Source of the DNA: Candidatus Methylomirabilota bacterium
Lineage (GTDB): Bacteria; Methylomirabilota; Methylomirabilia; Rokubacteriales; CSP1-6
Direction: 5' to 3'
NCBI GenBank assembly: GCA_046726415.1
Contig: JBKPAK010000021.1
Span: 1-35,009, forward strand
DNA length: 35,009 nucleotides
Position numbers: made by a program. Of the stretch, positions 3,001 through 12,000 are shown one piece after another. How positions within the stretch are numbered: position 1 is the stretch's first letter; each line of letters starts with the position of its first letter.

Positions 3001-6000
3001 CAATCGGGATCGGTCTCGGCTGGGGACTGATCGCCGCCTTCACCCGCGGGACCGGGGTCCGCAGCGTACCTCAAGCCCCCATCGCGCATCGACCGAGCGA
3101 GCCTGCCACTGAGGCCGAATCCGTGCAGGCGCTGCGAGCGACGGTGGCTCATCAAGCAGCAGAAATCACCCGGTATCAGGGCCGACTGGAGGAGGTCCTC
3201 AAGGAGCTGGATATCACCAGCGCCCGACTCCAGGAGACATCGTTCACGGACGAACTGACTGGCCTCTACAACCGTCGTTTCTTGTTCGTGCGCCTCGAAG
3301 AGGAGATCTCCCGTCACCGCCGCTTCAATCATCCGGTGAGCGTGGTGCTCTTCGACCTCGACGGATTCAAGGAGGTCAACGATAGACAAGGCCACATGAT
3401 CGGAGACGAAACCCTGCGCGACATCAGTCGAATCGTCACGAGGCACTCTCGGGGGATCGACGTGGTGGTCCGATACGGGGGCGATGAGTTCGCCTTCTTG
3501 CTCGTGGAGACCTCGAAGGCGGGGGCACGGCTCTACGCAGAGCGCATCCGTCAGATCATCTCCACCTATCCGTATTCCCACGACCTGCCCGTGACGGCCA
3601 GCTTCGGCGTGGCCAGCCTTCCCGAGGACACCGCCACCACCGCGGTGGACCTGATACGCATCGCCGACGAGGCGCTCTACGTGGCAAAGCGCGGAGGAAA
3701 GGATCAGGTGGCGGGCGCGCCATCCCCAAATCGGGGGACGCCTCTGGCATAGCGGGCGACCCCGGTTCTGATCGTCAACGGCGATCCCGATGTTCGCGAC
3801 ATCGTGGGCCAGACGCGGAAGACGCAGGTGCGGGTGCCGGTTTTCCCAATAGTGCCCGATTCGCTCCAGGCGGAAATCCCGCGACTAGCGCCGAGCCCGC
3901 GTGAGCATCAGCCTCGGTTGATCCCGGGACTGCGGTCATCGGGCCGGCGCTCGGAAATGCGGGAAGAGGCCTGCGACCATTGCTCCCAGATGCCGCGGGC
4001 CAGAAGTCCAAGGCCGAGGAATACAGCACAGAGAATCAGGCCTTCCTCGGTCAGCACGGCGACCGTCAGCTAGTGGCGAGGCGTCCAGTAACCCGGCACC
4101 CACATCCACTGGAAGCCATTCCACTGCCACGACGGCTCGATCCACACGAACCCGCGGTGGTGAGGGTGGACATGGTGGCGCGGCGGATTGGCCCGGAGGT
4201 ACTGGTGCAGTCCCAGACGTCCCCACGCCTCGTTCTGCAAGGCGCCCAGCGGGGGTCCAGGGAAAGGTCCGTTCAACCGGTGGCCGTGGCCGCCCGACCC
4301 AGCCCCTACACTTGCGGGCAAAAGGGCCAACGCAAGCGCGGCGAGCAGTCCCGGAAGGCCGAAAGCTCTCATCATCTGACTCCTCCTATCGCTAGGACGT
4401 ACCGCGTGCGGCCGCTATGTACGCCTCCGATCCTTTTTATGTACGCCTTCCATCCTTATGTAAGCCACCCATCCATTGTACCGACCCGACGTGCGTGAGG
4501 ATGTCCGGAGCGGCAAGGCCGTGGAAACGCTGCCGCGGTCAAGGCGCCGGATCGGAGTGTGGCATAGTGAGCGACCGAGGTGTTCAATCTGTTGATGCGG
4601 GAGTCGCGTGACGAAGACAAGCTCCCTCCCCAAGCTGGCATATCTCACGTGGGTCGACGCCTTCATCTTCACATGCTACTCGATCATCTTCCTGTCGATC
4701 GTCGAGGATATGGCGGTCCACGTGACGTGGCGGAGCGGGCGCCGGCAACTGGCTCGGCAGCTCGACCGCACGAGTCGGTGGGCCTTTCCCCTGGCCTTCC
4801 TCCTCGTCAAGCTCTTCCTCGGCGTCATCTTCCTGGGGGCGCGCGCCACTCCTGTCGCGCTATCCTGAACGCACCGAGGCGACTAGTCCTCGTGCGTGCA
4901 AGCATGTCGGGGAAACGAGGAGCGGGGTCCCGGGCGTTGGGGGGGGCTTCGAGGCCCCTCATCTCATCAACCGAGGAGTGATGTCATGGATGACAAGGAG
5001 CAGACGCCGGGAGTCATCGAGACGCAGCTCAAGACCTGGGGCGCCGAACTGGATCGGCTGAAGGCCAGAGTGGACCGTCAGATCGCCGAGGCCAAGAAGG
5101 ACTACTACGAGCAGATCGAGGACCTGCGGGGGGACATGGAGGCGACCCTGCGGAAATGGGGGACCGAACTGGAAAGCGTGCGCAACCGCACAGAGGCGGA
5201 AAGCCAGAAGACGCTCGCGCAGCTCCGGGGCAAGATTGAGGCAGAGCTGAAAGAGTGGCGCCCGGAAATCGAGGGCCTGATGGCCCGCGCCAGCCGCGCT
5301 CAGAATGAGGCTGACCGACTGATCGAGGATCTCAAGGCGCGCCACCGCGCGCTCAAGGCCAAGCTCGGCGAGCTGAAGCACGCCAGCGGGGGAGCCTGGG
5401 GAGATGTCAAGAGCGGTATGGGTAAGGCCTGGGAGGAGCTGAAGCCCGCCCTGCAGAACGCCATCGCCAAGTTCAAGTGAGAAGAGGCCGTGGCGGCGCG
5501 GCCGCACTGCCGCGGTGAACTGCGATACAGTCTGGCCCATGACGCCTCGCCAGTCGCTGAGACGCATGTCCTGGAGCGCGCCGCCCGCGCCATGGAGGTC
5601 GAACCGTGCAGAAGACGGTCCGCGTCGTCCACTATATCAATCAGTTTTTTGCCGGCGTCGGCGGTGAAGCAGCCGCCAACGCTCCGGTAACCGTCCGTCA
5701 CGAGGTGGTGGGGGCGGCCCGCGCGCTTCAGGGCGCGCTCCCCGCCGAGGCAGAGATCGTCGCCACCTTGGTGGGTGGCGATAACTTCTTCCACGACGAG
5801 CGCGAGCGCGCGCGTGGCGCGGTCCGCGAAGCGCTGCGCGCCGTCCGCCCCGACGTCGTCGTGGCCGGACCCGCCTTCGAAGCCGGCCGCTACGGCATCG
5901 CCTGCGCCGAGGTGTGCCGGGTGGCCGCGGCCGAGGGATTCCCAGCGGTGGCCGCCATGCATCCGAGCAACCCGGGCGTCATGATGCACCGCCGCGAGGT

Positions 6001-9000: not shown

Positions 9001-12000
9001 GGCCTCGCCGAGGCGGCGGCGATTCCCTACGTGATCAATTGTGGCGAGGAGGCGGTGGGCGATCGCTACCAGCGCGGGGGCGGCAATCTCGCCAAGGCCG
9101 TCGCCGAGCGGTGCGCATGCCACCGGGCCAGCGGCGCCGACGTCAAGGCTTTTTGCTGCGGCCCCGTCCATGCGCTCGTCATGGCCGCCGCTCTGGTGGC
9201 GGCGGGGATCTTCGAGCAGGTCGCGGTCGTGGGCGGCTGCTCGCTCGCCAAGCTCGGCATGAAGTTTCAGGGGCATCTGGCCAAGGGGCATCCGATCATC
9301 GAAGACGTGCTCGCCGGTTTCGCGGCGCTGATCGGCCGGGACGACGGATACTCCCCGATTCTCCGCATGGACGCGATCGGACGCCACACCGTGGGGGCTG
9401 GCGGGGCACAGCAGGCCATCCTCCAAGCCCTCGCGGCGGAACCACTGGAACATATCGGCCTCCGTCTGAGCGACGTGGACCGCTACGCGACGGAGTTGCA
9501 CAATCCCGAGGCCACGGAGCCGGCGGGCAGCGGCAACGTCCCGCTCCTGAACTATCGCCTGTTGGCCGCCCTCGCCATCGCGCGAGGCGAGATCCCGCGC
9601 GACGCGCTGGGGGATTTCGTCGCGCGCCACGGCATGCCCGGCTTCTCGCCGACGCAGGGCCACATTGCTTCGGCTGTGCCATTTCTCGCGCATGCCATCG
9701 ATGGCCTCACCAGCGGGTCTCTGCGACGTATCATGTTTCTGGCCAAGGGCAGCCTGTTCCTGGGGCGCATGACTCAGATGTCGGACGGGCTATCCTTCAT
9801 ACTCGAACGCAATCCATCGGGAGAACGGGAGGACCGATTTCGATGACGCTCAAGGACAAGAAAGTGATTGCCATCGGCGAGCGGGACGGCGTTCCCGGTT
9901 CGGCCATCACCCGCTGCGCCCAGGAGGCGGGCGCTGATGTGGTCATGGAGATGACCCACTGCTTCGTCTGAACGGCCGCTGGCGCCCTTGACCTGGAGGG
10001 TCAAGAGACGATCAAGCGGGTGGCCGAGCGCTACTCCCGCGAAGAATTGGTCGTGCTCATCGGCACCCCGAATCCAGAGAGTAGCGAGCTGGTCGCGACC
10101 ACACTCACCGAAGGTGACCCGACGTGGGCCGGGGTCCTTGCCGGCGTTCGGCTCGAACTATCGGTGTTTCACATCACCGAGGAGAGCATCAAGGCACTGG
10201 TTCCGCCCGATGTCTATCACTCCCAGGTCGGCCTGGCCGAGGTGGCGCTGGACACCGGAGCGATCGGCGAGGTCGTCCAGCATGTTCGCACCCGCGTGAG
10301 CGGGTGATGAACGCTGGGGGGGGCGGGCGCCGCTCCTCCCGATCGCGCTGCGGCCACTTCGGCGAGCGCCGATGAGATCCCTGGCACCCCGGGGAAGCAG
10401 GTCGCGCGCGAACCAATGGCTCCTCCTTGCCCTGGCCGTCGCGGTGCTCGGCCTGCATGCCGAGCGACTCGAGGCCGCCGAGTCGTCGTGGGTCGAAGCA
10501 TGGATGGCGCAGCCCGGAGCGACGGGAACATGGTTTGGGCTGCGCGAGCGTCTCGACCGACTGGGCGTCACCCCGACGATCACCTACACGACGGATCTGA
10601 TGGGCAATCCCATCGGGGGGCGCCGGCAGGGCGTGGCCTACGCGGCCCAGCTCAACGTCGACGTCTTCGTCGATCTCGGGAAGCTGGCCGGGCTCAAGGG
10701 GCTGGCGCTCGACATCTCGGGGAACTGGGCATCCGGCACCGACCTCTCCACCGACGACATCGACAACTTCTTCATCGTGTCGCAGGCCTTCGCCGGCGAC
10801 CGGCTCCGCCTGTACACGCTGTACCTCGATCAGGCGTTGCTCGACGGAAAACTCGACATCAAGGTGGGACGGTTCGCGCCGGGTGACGACTTCCTGAGCT
10901 GGCCACAGTACTCCTTCCTCGTGAACATCGCCCTCAACCCGGCGGTCTTCGCGACCCAGGTGAACGTCCCCGGCTTTACCGCATCACCCATCGGGACCTG
11001 GGGCGCGCGGATCCGCGCGAAGCCGGTGGAGTCCTTCTCGGCCACGGCGGGAATCTACTATTCCGACCCGTCGCGCAACCTGCTGAACACGACCGGTCTC
11101 GACCTTGGCATCGACACCACGGGCACGGGCTATCTCGGAATCGCCGAGTTCGCCTACTACAACAACCAGGGGGCCTCCGCCGCCGGTCTCCCCGGAACTT
11201 ACCGGTTCGGCGGCTATTACGACTCGAACCGGTTTCCCACGTTTGCCGACCCTCTCACGAAGCGCCGGGGCAACTGGGGGCTCTTTGTTCTGGTGGATCA
11301 GGTCGTGTATCGCGAGGACCCTCCGGGCAGCGGGCAGGGGCTGGGGCTCGCCGGCACCTTCGTGGCGGCGCCGGACCAGAGCATCAACACGATCCCCTAC
11401 TTCGCGGCGGTGGGGGCCGTCTACCGCGGGCTCTTCCCCCGGCGTGACAAGGACGCGCTCGCCTTCGCCGTCTACTACGGAGCGTTCAGCCGCGACCTGC
11501 CGGGGCAGAAGTCGGAGACCGTCCTCGAGCTGACCTACAGCCTCGTGCTGGCGCCCTGGCTCAGCATCCAGCCCGACATTCAGTACGTCATCAATCCGAA
11601 CGGCCGGACGAACGTCAAGAACGCGCTGGTGATCGGTACGCAGATCTCGGTGACGTTCTGAGTTGGTCCACGATTAGATCGGATGGGAACGTCGCGCGGC
11701 TCCCCTGCCTGACCGTGGTGGTGGCCAATGGCAAGGGCGTGACACTCTCGCGAGAGCGGGGGGCCGGACTTGTTCGGCTCGGTCGCCGCCCGCAGGGCCG
11801 GTGAGGGCGATGCCGAGACACTGGGAGTCCATCGAGGGTGCGCAGTACCTCAAGGGCATCGACAACGCCACCTACTACATCATGACCGACGATCCGCGCG
11901 CGCCGTACGCGGACTACTCCGGCTGCGGCAACACCGTGCGCGCCGCCAATCGGGCGGTCCGCCATCTGATCCGGGAGAGCCTTCGCTACTGGGTGACCGA

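Follow-up and report, generated by a model that had tools for sequence, protein, structure and literature searches.

The window, as we call the whole 35,009-nucleotide stretch of Candidatus Methylomirabilota DNA that was analysed, carries a four-gene operon on the + strand. Its first gene, translated with TGA as selenocysteine (U), encodes a GrdB-like selenoprotein of 444 codons (5606..6938), the substrate-specific B subunit. The in-frame UGA at 6653..6655 (U350) lies in the motif STUGTCNRCGA, a UxxCxxC arrangement, and falls at the same alignment position as the U in canonical GrdB and GrdH. The protein matched Pfam GRDB at 397 bits and the TIGR01918 subfamily at 443 (cut-off 65), and its motifs include VGGD, GPAFEAGRYG, YHVGYFTH, YVLPLG and TLPGVSTPV. 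Directly 3' of the UGA there is a SECIS element on the same strand (6656..6693; Rfam RF01990, SECIS_4), which at 44.1 bits (E = 3.2e-7) exceeds the gathering score of 38; SECIS_4 also follows the UGA of the GrdB-like paralogue on contig C9. The start of the second gene (6939..8246), for an alpha-type B subunit of the GrdE/G/I family without the pyruvoyl-forming Cys (Pfam Gly_reductase, 283 bits), abuts the GrdB-like stop. GrdC, component C beta, follows at 8386..9846 (NF040746, 604.1 bits, cut-off 450) and belongs to a GrdD-less clade. Its stop overlaps via ATGA the start of grdA, encoding the 154-codon selenoprotein A (9843..10307; Pfam GRDA 184 bits; NF040748 188 against a cut-off of 130), in which U43 of the CFVU motif is encoded by the TGA at 9969-9971. 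A stem-loop of 8 pairs on the + strand (9987..10005), 18 nt 3' of this UGA, is a candidate SECIS; RNAfold of 9969-10031 gave -29.0 kcal/mol (z -2.2 versus shuffles), and an Rfam search found no family match there. A simple scan showed no sigma-70-like promoter for the operon. The order and positions of the four genes agree with the earlier note, and its scores (GrdC 604 against 450; B-alphas far under the GrdG and FarE cut-offs) were reproduced.

Across the whole genome, strong matches to GRDB (PF07355) and to Gly_reductase (PF09338) occurred at four places each, paired on contigs C9, C165, C172 and C21 (the last being that of the window). Three B pairs thus lie beyond the window, which confirms the four pairs described before; GrdA and GrdC were each found by tblastn as one copy. 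Pairwise identity is 42-54% among the four GrdB-like proteins and 36-44% among the four alphas. The contexts of the other pairs were also as described: Amidohydro_3 and an Opp/Dpp-type ABC importer on C9; two RidA domains, a DAO-FAO_M-GCV_T protein and a sigma-54 activator on C165; and an Opp/Dpp-type ABC importer, a cyclase, Amidohydro_3 and an M20 peptidase on C172. The window alpha scored 218.6 against GrdG (cut-off 780) and 134.6 against FarE (cut-off 675), and the other three 205.6-246.1 and 127.7-200.5, respectively. The earlier note had cautioned that the GrdB-like proteins were unscored against the GrdB, GrdF and GrdH equivalog models. When these were run, the window protein fell under every cut-off (407/602, 435/800 and 381/775), as did all four (407-533, 435-554 and 381-474). 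Across the phylum, B modules gave 1-5 matches per genome.

The best match to GrdD (NF040747) in the genome, 26.1 bits, lies within a housekeeping plsX that sits in a plsX-fabH pair and, with 373 bits, clears the plsX cut-off (243). A tblastn search whose queries were four GrdD domains cut from GrdC-GrdD fusion proteins likewise returned only plsX (best E 0.012). GrdD was over cut-off in none of 251 genomes of the phylum, 49 of which have GrdC over cut-off, and in none of 50 GrdC-bearing genomes of other phyla, 21 of them records titled 'chromosome'. The flanks of 80 related loci (1.4 Mb) held no match save one weak one (E 8e-4). As positive controls, the profile gave 552-581 bits in 2/2 canonical records, and tblastn found GrdD directly after grdC in 3/3 canonical loci. 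Whole-genome searching covered 50 of the 80 related genomes; all the genomes are uncultured assemblies, and the source genome is in 352 contigs and 98% complete. The absence of GrdD claimed for this genome and its relatives is upheld and extended to the phylum and beyond, and by these sequence searches GrdD is truly absent from the system.

In the GrdC tree, built by FastTree only, the GrdCs without GrdD (81 rows, with 8 representatives of unknown status) formed their own clade with support 99, apart from those with adjacent or fused GrdD (7 rows, with 6 of unknown status). Five differences are fixed between the two: G220/S, K254/R, K293/N, A428/P and A430/G. Hosts of the GrdD-less clade include Chloroflexota/Dehalococcoidia, Rokubacteria, NC10, Entotheonellaceae, Binatia, Acidobacteriota, Latescibacterota and Planctomycetota, among others; GrdC identity across these phyla is 55-84%. 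Downstream, grdA directly follows grdC in 72/80 loci, and there is no further conserved neighbour. The extra cysteines of the clade GrdC are not universal (Cys258 in 65/81 rows, Cys285 in 63/81, neither in 2/81).

The AlphaFold model of GrdC (pLDDT 92) has a fold like that of FabH, OleA and PqsBC (Foldseek probability 1.00, TM ~0.5 on the target, identity 10-18%). Cys257 aligns with the FabH nucleophile, a Cys at a helix N-terminus, and was kept in 81/81 and 11/11 GrdC rows. GrdC thus shares fold and nucleophilic Cys with FabH/KAS III; it differs in an extra N-terminal domain of ~190 residues, and the FabH His/Asn pair did not align with conserved GrdC residues.

Among the 21 chromosome records of the clade, acetate kinase (AckA) was present in 3 and phosphotransacetylase (Pta) in none, and AckA was found in 2/2 canonical control records. 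Most clade genomes thus lack AckA and Pta as well as GrdD; it is the whole acetyl-phosphate branch that is missing and not one subunit. A haem-copper oxidase was present in 21/21 chromosome records and in 22/22 genomes overall. The earlier description of a GrdD-less variant of the Grd system, equipped with several divergent B modules, held in every test run. The variant is not peculiar to the source lineage: in the GrdC phylogeny the GrdD-less form is a separate, widespread clade in oxygen-respiring soil and ocean bacteria.

Among the closest known counterparts is the glycine reductase complex GrdABCDE (EC 1.21.4.2), which occurs in Peptostreptococcales as well as in other anaerobes. Shared with it are the CxxU of GrdA, the UxxCxxC of the GrdB family, a GrdE-family alpha, GrdC, and several B modules per one A and one C; passages of PMC10838667 likewise describe one reductase common to several B complexes. 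The window system differs in having no GrdD, no pyruvoyl Cys in the alpha, a GrdB-like protein outside the GrdB equivalog and motif, and no linked trxB or trx. Its grdA stands after grdC, in the canonical grdD position, its GrdC is ~43% identical to canonical GrdCs, and the hosts have haem-copper oxidase but, for the most part, neither AckA nor Pta. As in betaine reductase GrdH/GrdI, annotated on Enterococcus gilvus pCR1A, the alpha is without the first cysteine of the site at which GrdE is processed, which fits a substrate needing no carbonyl cofactor. The GrdB-like protein, however, scores 381 against the GrdH cut-off of 775 and has YHVGYFTH, YVLPLG and TLPGVSTPV where the GrdH pocket has IHAGFDPA, VVLPLD and TVGTGT; the BCCT transporter, grdD, trxB and trx of pCR1A have no counterparts here. 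Fluoroacetate reductase FarEB of Cloacibacillus porcorum is also a B-type module, acting on a non-amine substrate. Passages of PMC10838667 state that the FarE alpha lacks the two processing cysteines and that FarB reportedly lacks CxxC, predict transfer of the Far carboxymethyl-selenoether to the protein A and C components of glycine reductase, and list grdABCDEX for the C. porcorum genome. For each of the four alphas FarE ranked second among the NCBIfam models, yet far under the cut-off at 128-200 against 675, and the window GrdB-like protein, unlike FarB, keeps UxxCxxC. Both B-type subunits are distantly homologous to D-proline reductase PrdAB (PrdB model 75/300, PrdA 27/700), the outcome of which is non-phosphorylating according to a review (PMC13188914); Prd does not use GrdA or GrdC, whereas the window system has both.

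Where canonical GrdE has 'SGNCVSAC', the window alpha reads 'SGPYRTLFATSW', and the cysteine that gives rise to the pyruvoyl group in canonical GrdE is absent from the alpha subunits of the clade. The window GrdB-like protein fails to match four of the five elements of the published GrdB motif (PMC9751293). Both features make glycine and sarcosine unlikely substrates; a pyruvoyl group might in principle form from Ser or Thr. As the branch lacks the subunit and partner enzymes for ATP, the operon's substrate is probably not glycine, and its cleavage probably serves a purpose other than making ATP.

Four other readings were weighed. That this is an ordinary glycine, sarcosine or betaine reductase, its GrdD overlooked in an incomplete assembly or too divergent for the profile, would accord with the 352-contig, 98% complete assembly and with GrdA and GrdC passing their equivalog cut-offs. 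It is nevertheless close to refuted by the counts of 0/251 and 0/50, by tblastn with four diverse GrdD domains returning plsX only, by recovery of GrdD in every canonical control with the same tools, by the failure of any GrdB-like or alpha subunit to reach an equivalog cut-off, and by the missing pyruvoyl Cys. Acetyl phosphate might still be made if GrdC alone phosphorolysed the thioester, or if PlsX, the sole GrdD relative in the genome, substituted, with AckA then yielding ATP. The source genome does carry AckA, and AckA is somewhat commoner in phylum genomes with GrdC (38/55) than in those without (97/196), a mild association that would fit this route. We regard it as unlikely all the same: 18/21 chromosome records are without AckA and 21/21 without Pta, 17 of the 55 GrdC-bearing phylum genomes lack AckA (nine of these being 92-100% complete), plsX is unlinked to grd in its ordinary pair with fabH, and a phosphoketolase also encoded in the source genome would account for its AckA.

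Decay of a glycine reductase operon after loss of grdD, leaving a non-working remnant, is hardly credible. The defining subunit is missing and the simple scan showed no sigma-70-like promoter, but the frames of all four genes are intact and open, both Sec codons are retained with a SECIS above the Rfam gathering score, and the genome keeps the Sec machinery (tRNA-Sec and SelA). In the 80 related loci every GrdA active-site motif recovered (67/67) has TGA, and so do 52/53 GrdB-site motifs; GrdC is conserved over many phyla, and B modules have multiplied. A role outside small-acid catabolism, such as FabH-like condensation by an acetyl-Cys or action on carrier- or protein-bound groups, is improbable. 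Condensing enzymes are nearest in fold to GrdC, and 21/21 loci of the window type have no linked transporter or catabolic gene; however, FabH His and Asn have no conserved GrdC counterparts, and further B modules in these genomes adjoin importers and amidohydrolases, in keeping with the breakdown of small molecules taken up from outside.

The reading we favour, with somewhat better than even confidence, is that the operon encodes a functional, non-phosphorylating Grd-type reductase from a separate GrdD-less branch that does not act on glycine. The B pair, GrdB-like protein and unprocessed alpha, would bind an acetate with a good leaving group on the alpha carbon, such as a betaine-type quaternary amine or similar. 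Sec350 would displace the leaving group, after which Sec43 of GrdA would receive the carboxymethyl group in selenoether form. GrdC, with its FabH-like thiolase fold, would accept the group as an acetyl thioester on Cys257, leaving GrdA in an Se-S form to be re-reduced by thioredoxin. Canonically, GrdD phosphorolyses the GrdC thioester to acetyl phosphate; here, as the GrdC fold and the missing genes suggest, the thioester would exit by CoA transfer or hydrolysis. A non-homologous, unlinked protein may alternatively replace GrdD. The three further B pairs would supply other substrates to the single GrdA and GrdC. The system would then serve carbon and nitrogen scavenging in aerobic heterotrophs and not fermentative ATP synthesis. 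The grdB-like genes of this clade are a probable confounder in surveys with grdB as the marker.

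The system lies in an operon of four tightly packed genes at 5606-10307, all on the + strand, and the family assignment of the four proteins was upheld by Pfam and NCBIfam. The gene for the GrdB-like selenoprotein (5606-6938) has an in-frame TGA at 6653-6655, corresponding to U350 in the motif STUGTCNRCGA, and an Rfam SECIS_4 element directly follows this codon at 6656-6693 (44.1 bits, gathering threshold 38). The gene for the alpha-type B subunit (6939-8246; 435 residues) starts at the base right after the GrdB-like stop codon and is followed by grdC (8386-9846; NF040746, 604.1 bits against a cut-off of 450) and grdA (9843-10307), which shares an ATGA overlap with the grdC stop. 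GrdA passed NF040748 (188 bits, cut-off 130) and has its CxxU redox motif as CFVU, with U43 encoded by the TGA at 9969-9971; an 8-pair hairpin was found downstream of this UGA, where Rfam gave no family match. The genome carries tRNA-Sec and SelA.

Upstream of the operon is a gene for a coiled-coil protein and downstream one for an OprB-family porin (10372-11661). The scanned ORFs of the window included neither a thioredoxin nor a thioredoxin reductase gene, and a scan of 4300-11800 gave 0 promoter-like and 2 terminator-like sites, not above shuffled sequences. When sequencing runs were searched with the stretch, no RNA run was listed as containing it; more than half of its words were present in six runs labelled soil metagenome, among which the source sample may be found. 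A sugar-phosphate cluster adjoins the operon at 12452-18841, with phosphoglucomutase (12452-14401, -), glucokinase (14116-15093, -), fructose-1,6-bisphosphatase (15108-16097, -) and a large MGH1-like/GH63 glycoside hydrolase (16211-18841, +); this cluster and the OprB porin could jointly form a unit that takes up and uses a compatible solute or sugar. Elsewhere in the window, a 392-residue protein with a C-terminal Tim44-like domain (26491-27669, -; 129 bits) adjoins an AsmA/DUF748-family protein at 24879-26597.

The GrdB-like protein passed the subfamily model TIGR01918 for the glycine/betaine/sarcosine/D-proline reductase family (443.1 bits, cut-off 65.45), fell below the GrdB equivalog TIGR01917 (406.6 bits, cut-off 602), and its U350 falls on the selenocysteine of GrdB and of GrdH in the alignment. 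Of the five-element GrdB motif given in the methods of PMC9751293, only the first element, YxNx(6)GGE, was kept; CGD, GPxF[NF]AGRYG, AHGGxD, RV[IL]PxD and TxGNxTxV were replaced by VGGD, GPAFEAGRYG, YHVGYFTH, YVLPLG and TLPGVSTPV. The sarcosine models, which are of exception level, were failed by the pair (GrdF 435.4/800, GrdG 218.6/780, as bits over cut-off), and the GrdF motif IHGGYDR...TTGTGT was not found in the GrdB-like protein. Judged from sequence, the B module of the window appears to be of neither glycine, sarcosine nor betaine type by any available test.

The earlier note had described four GrdB-like/alpha pairs in this genome. All four were recovered, on contigs C9, C165, C172 and C21 (the window), with single copies of GrdA and GrdC; all scores were reproduced, and the other three pairs had the surroundings claimed for them, namely Opp/Dpp-type ABC importers, Amidohydro_3, a cyclase, an M20 peptidase, two RidA domains and a DAO-FAO_M-GCV_T dehydrogenase. 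A check left open there, scoring the GrdB-like proteins against the GrdB, GrdF and GrdH models, gave 0 of 4 at cut-off. SECIS_4 was below threshold at the UGA of the C165 paralogue (29.4 bits, threshold 38), and no Rfam SECIS match was obtained at that of the C172 paralogue. The latter protein (C172:12658-13968; L138:10133-11443) reads UGSCSRGG instead of UGTCxRCG and has lost the second Cys of UxxCxxC; the GrdB-like proteins of related loci include 15 with UxxSxxS and 5 with UxxSxxC. Besides the four full modules, Pfam GRDB gave three short matches in its C-terminal half (22-34 bits; C156:55541-55894, C78:1306-1728 and C49:3035-3337), which may be PrdB-like or selenium-free GrdB-related proteins. 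GRDB matches were obtained in 62 of 251 Methylomirabilota genomes, including all 55 with a GrdC match and 7 without GrdC that are 81-95% complete. With 1-5 matches in each of the 62, it is the rule in the phylum, as it is in canonical organisms, that several B modules share a single A and a single C component.

In canonical alpha subunits, the first Cys of the processing site is converted to a pyruvoyl group, to which glycine or sarcosine binds through its amino group. This site reads SGNCVSAC in the GrdE-type alphas of Acetoanaerobium and of Photobacterium, and SGPYRTLFATSW in the window alpha. The first Cys is missing from the window alpha, its three paralogues and nearly every alpha of the clade; the GNC motif occurred in no alpha of the related loci, and a few carried a Cys a few residues off. 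Loss of the processing Cys suggests substrates that carry a good leaving group and for which no carbonyl cofactor would be needed. The Cys is likewise absent from the alpha adjoining grdH in Enterococcus gilvus. As regards betaine reductase GrdH/GrdI, the window alpha lacks the processing Cys, and the GrdB-like protein scored below the GrdH cut-off (380.9/775). According to PMC10838667, the Cys is also absent from FarE, the alpha of a fluoroacetate-specific module; the window alpha failed the FarE equivalog (134.6/675), and FarB is described in the same paper as lacking CxxC, whereas the window GrdB-like protein has UxxCxxC. The pair also failed the D-proline reductase models (PrdB 75.1/300, PrdA 27.3/700). 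With glycine reductase GrdABCDE the operon shares GrdC and the CxxU of GrdA, but not the GrdB equivalog and motif, the pyruvoyl Cys of GrdE, or GrdD. The system has the GrdA, GrdC and selenocysteine chemistry of the Grd family and fails on GrdD, on a pyruvoyl alpha and on every named B specificity.

Absence of GrdD, claimed in the earlier note, was examined in 251 Methylomirabilota genomes and in 50 whole genomes out of the 80 with related loci. The best match to the NF040747 profile in this genome scored 26 bits against a cut-off of 350 and was plsX, which passes the plsX equivalog and is located before fabH. Searching the genome by tblastn with four GrdD domains that had been excised from GrdC-GrdD fusions found in the representative search gave nothing above plsX (E 0.012). 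Across the phylum GrdC matched in 55 of 251 genomes (49 over cut-off), and GrdD exceeded its cut-off in 0 of 251, with one weak match of 36.7 bits. It had no match in any of the 50 whole genomes, 21 of which are records titled 'chromosome'. Apart from one weak match (E 8e-4), no GrdD was found in the flanks of all 80 related GrdC loci (1.4 Mb). This match lies at L127:5777-6052 in one of those loci, with 29% identity across 99 residues, and possibly represents a gene of the PlsX family. As positive controls, the profile gave 552 bits in E. gilvus pCR1A and 581 bits in an Acetoanaerobium noterae record, in both right behind grdC, and with tblastn GrdD followed grdC in all 3 canonical loci; pCR1A is annotated as trxB, trx, grdA, grdC, grdD, B subunit, grdH and BCCT. 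The claim stood: GrdD is really missing from this genome and from the relatives searched.

Relatives of the window GrdC were sought in one genome per species, and the 80 loci studied (54-84% identity, among the matches listed) came from Dehalococcoidia and other Chloroflexota, Rokubacteria, NC10, Entotheonellaceae, Binatia, Acidobacteriota, Latescibacterota, Planctomycetota, Gemmatimonadota, Nitrospinota and Myxococcota. At E <= 1e-10 there were 6,311 relatives among the candidates scored, and the species-genome collection held at least 541 matching stretches. A FastTree phylogeny was built from 102 GrdC sequences (the window protein, the 80 loci, 3 canonical, 4 fused and 14 further cluster representatives). 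With a support of 99, it separated 7 of 7 sequences with adjacent or fused GrdD, plus 6 of unknown status, from 81 of 81 without GrdD, plus 8 of unknown status; the tree comes from FastTree only and has several long branches, and the 'no GrdD' label derives from flanks alone in 30 of the 80 loci. Fixed differences between the two sides include G220/S, K254/R, K293/N, A428/P and A430/G, and residue 372 is His in 76 of 81 sequences versus Gln in 8 of 11 on the other side. In 72 of the 80 clade loci grdA is immediately downstream of grdC, which is the canonical position of grdD. The GrdD-less GrdCs form a separate clade rather than a lineage quirk, so the variant Grd system proposed earlier for this lineage was supported and extends to many phyla. 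Four natural GrdC-GrdD fusions (P0128, P0129, P0134 and P0141; single chains of 842-861 residues in which both NCBIfam models exceed their cut-offs) were found among the cluster representatives, and these grouped with the canonical GrdCs in the FastTree analysis.

A neighbouring gene in place of GrdD was not apparent: all-against-all clustering of the ORFs of the 80 loci gave only GrdA, alpha and GrdB-like as conserved, the remaining large clusters being overlapping alternative-frame ORFs, and the 21 loci whose GrdB-like protein has the motifs of the window had nothing in common beyond the four genes. Cys258 and Cys285 of GrdC were considered as stand-ins for the GrdD Cys; they are frequent and not universal, with two Binatia loci having neither, so that the idea was rejected as a rule and kept only as a trend. 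Cys257 does not vary on either side of the tree. The predicted GrdC model (33 sequences; pLDDT 92, pTM 0.93) had FabH, OleA and PqsBC as top Foldseek matches, and hhalign against the genome's own FabH (86.6% probability) placed Cys257 on the FabH nucleophilic Cys. Cys257 begins the helix 256-272 of the model, so that GrdC shows both the thiolase fold of KAS III-like enzymes and their nucleophilic Cys at a helix N-terminus. Profile alignment put the FabH His and Asn on no conserved GrdC residue, and a PDB sequence search with GrdB-like, alpha and GrdC gave no match. FabH-type enzymes swap acetyl groups between their nucleophilic Cys and CoA, and because of this CoA is favoured as the putative acetyl acceptor in the absence of GrdD; hydrolysis would be the other simple exit for the acetyl group from GrdC. 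We tentatively suggest, while regarding it as rather doubtful, that the clade GrdC is self-sufficient, a FabH-like acyltransferase that would pass acetyl from the GrdA selenoether to CoA. In aerobic bacteria of soil and ocean, the operon would then convert alpha-substituted acetates, such as betaine-type osmolytes or the like, into acetyl-CoA by selenium chemistry driven by thioredoxin, without substrate-level phosphorylation.

Loss of the acetyl-phosphate branch was assessed in the 251 phylum genomes and the 21 clade chromosome records. Acetate kinase was found in 3 of the 21 records and phosphotransacetylase in 0, with haem-copper oxidase subunit I in all 21 and in the window's own genome; both canonical records have acetate kinase. 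In the phylum, acetate kinase is missing from 17 of the 55 genomes with GrdC, nine of them 92-100% complete, but it is somewhat commoner with GrdC (38/55) than without (97/196), which counts against such a loss. So does its presence in the window's own genome, where acetate kinase and phosphoketolase are encoded at C167:3730-5106 and C7:9653-10729. No phosphotransacetylase was found there, and this combination suggests an Xfp-AckA route involving acetyl phosphate.

The observation in the earlier note was confirmed overall in gene set, scores and GrdD absence, and its reading was broadened by the wider clade. As stated there, no paper holding both 'Rokubacteria' and 'glycine reductase' was found among open-access papers and bioRxiv, and a GrdD-less form was not described in anything retrieved from the same sources for GrdD, GrdC, betaine reductase or the phyla in question. 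According to a 2026 selenoproteome review (PMC13188914), glycine reductase consists of proteins A, B and C and serves anaerobes in energy conservation. A wetland study (PMC11784365) takes grdB as the key gene and marker of CO2 fixation by the reductive glycine pathway; it names Chloroflexota and Methylomirabilota as the main carriers and assigns the freshwater transcripts to Methylomirabilota and Desulfobacterota. If the grdB genes of that study belong to the present clade, its pathway inference would be unsafe. Pipelines annotate the relatives as glycine or betaine reductase.

The usual view of glycine reductase is of a rare enzyme, sensitive to oxygen, by which anaerobes that ferment amino acids gain ATP. 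Here a coherent sister branch occurs in oxygen-respiring Chloroflexota, Rokubacteria, Entotheonellaceae, Binatia and others, without the phosphorylating subunit and mostly without acetate kinase and phosphotransacetylase, which suggests that the same selenium chemistry is put to another use, on unnamed substrates. If GrdC of this clade is indeed self-sufficient, much of the 'glycine reductase / reductive glycine pathway' signal of Chloroflexota and Methylomirabilota in environmental surveys would be this enzyme.
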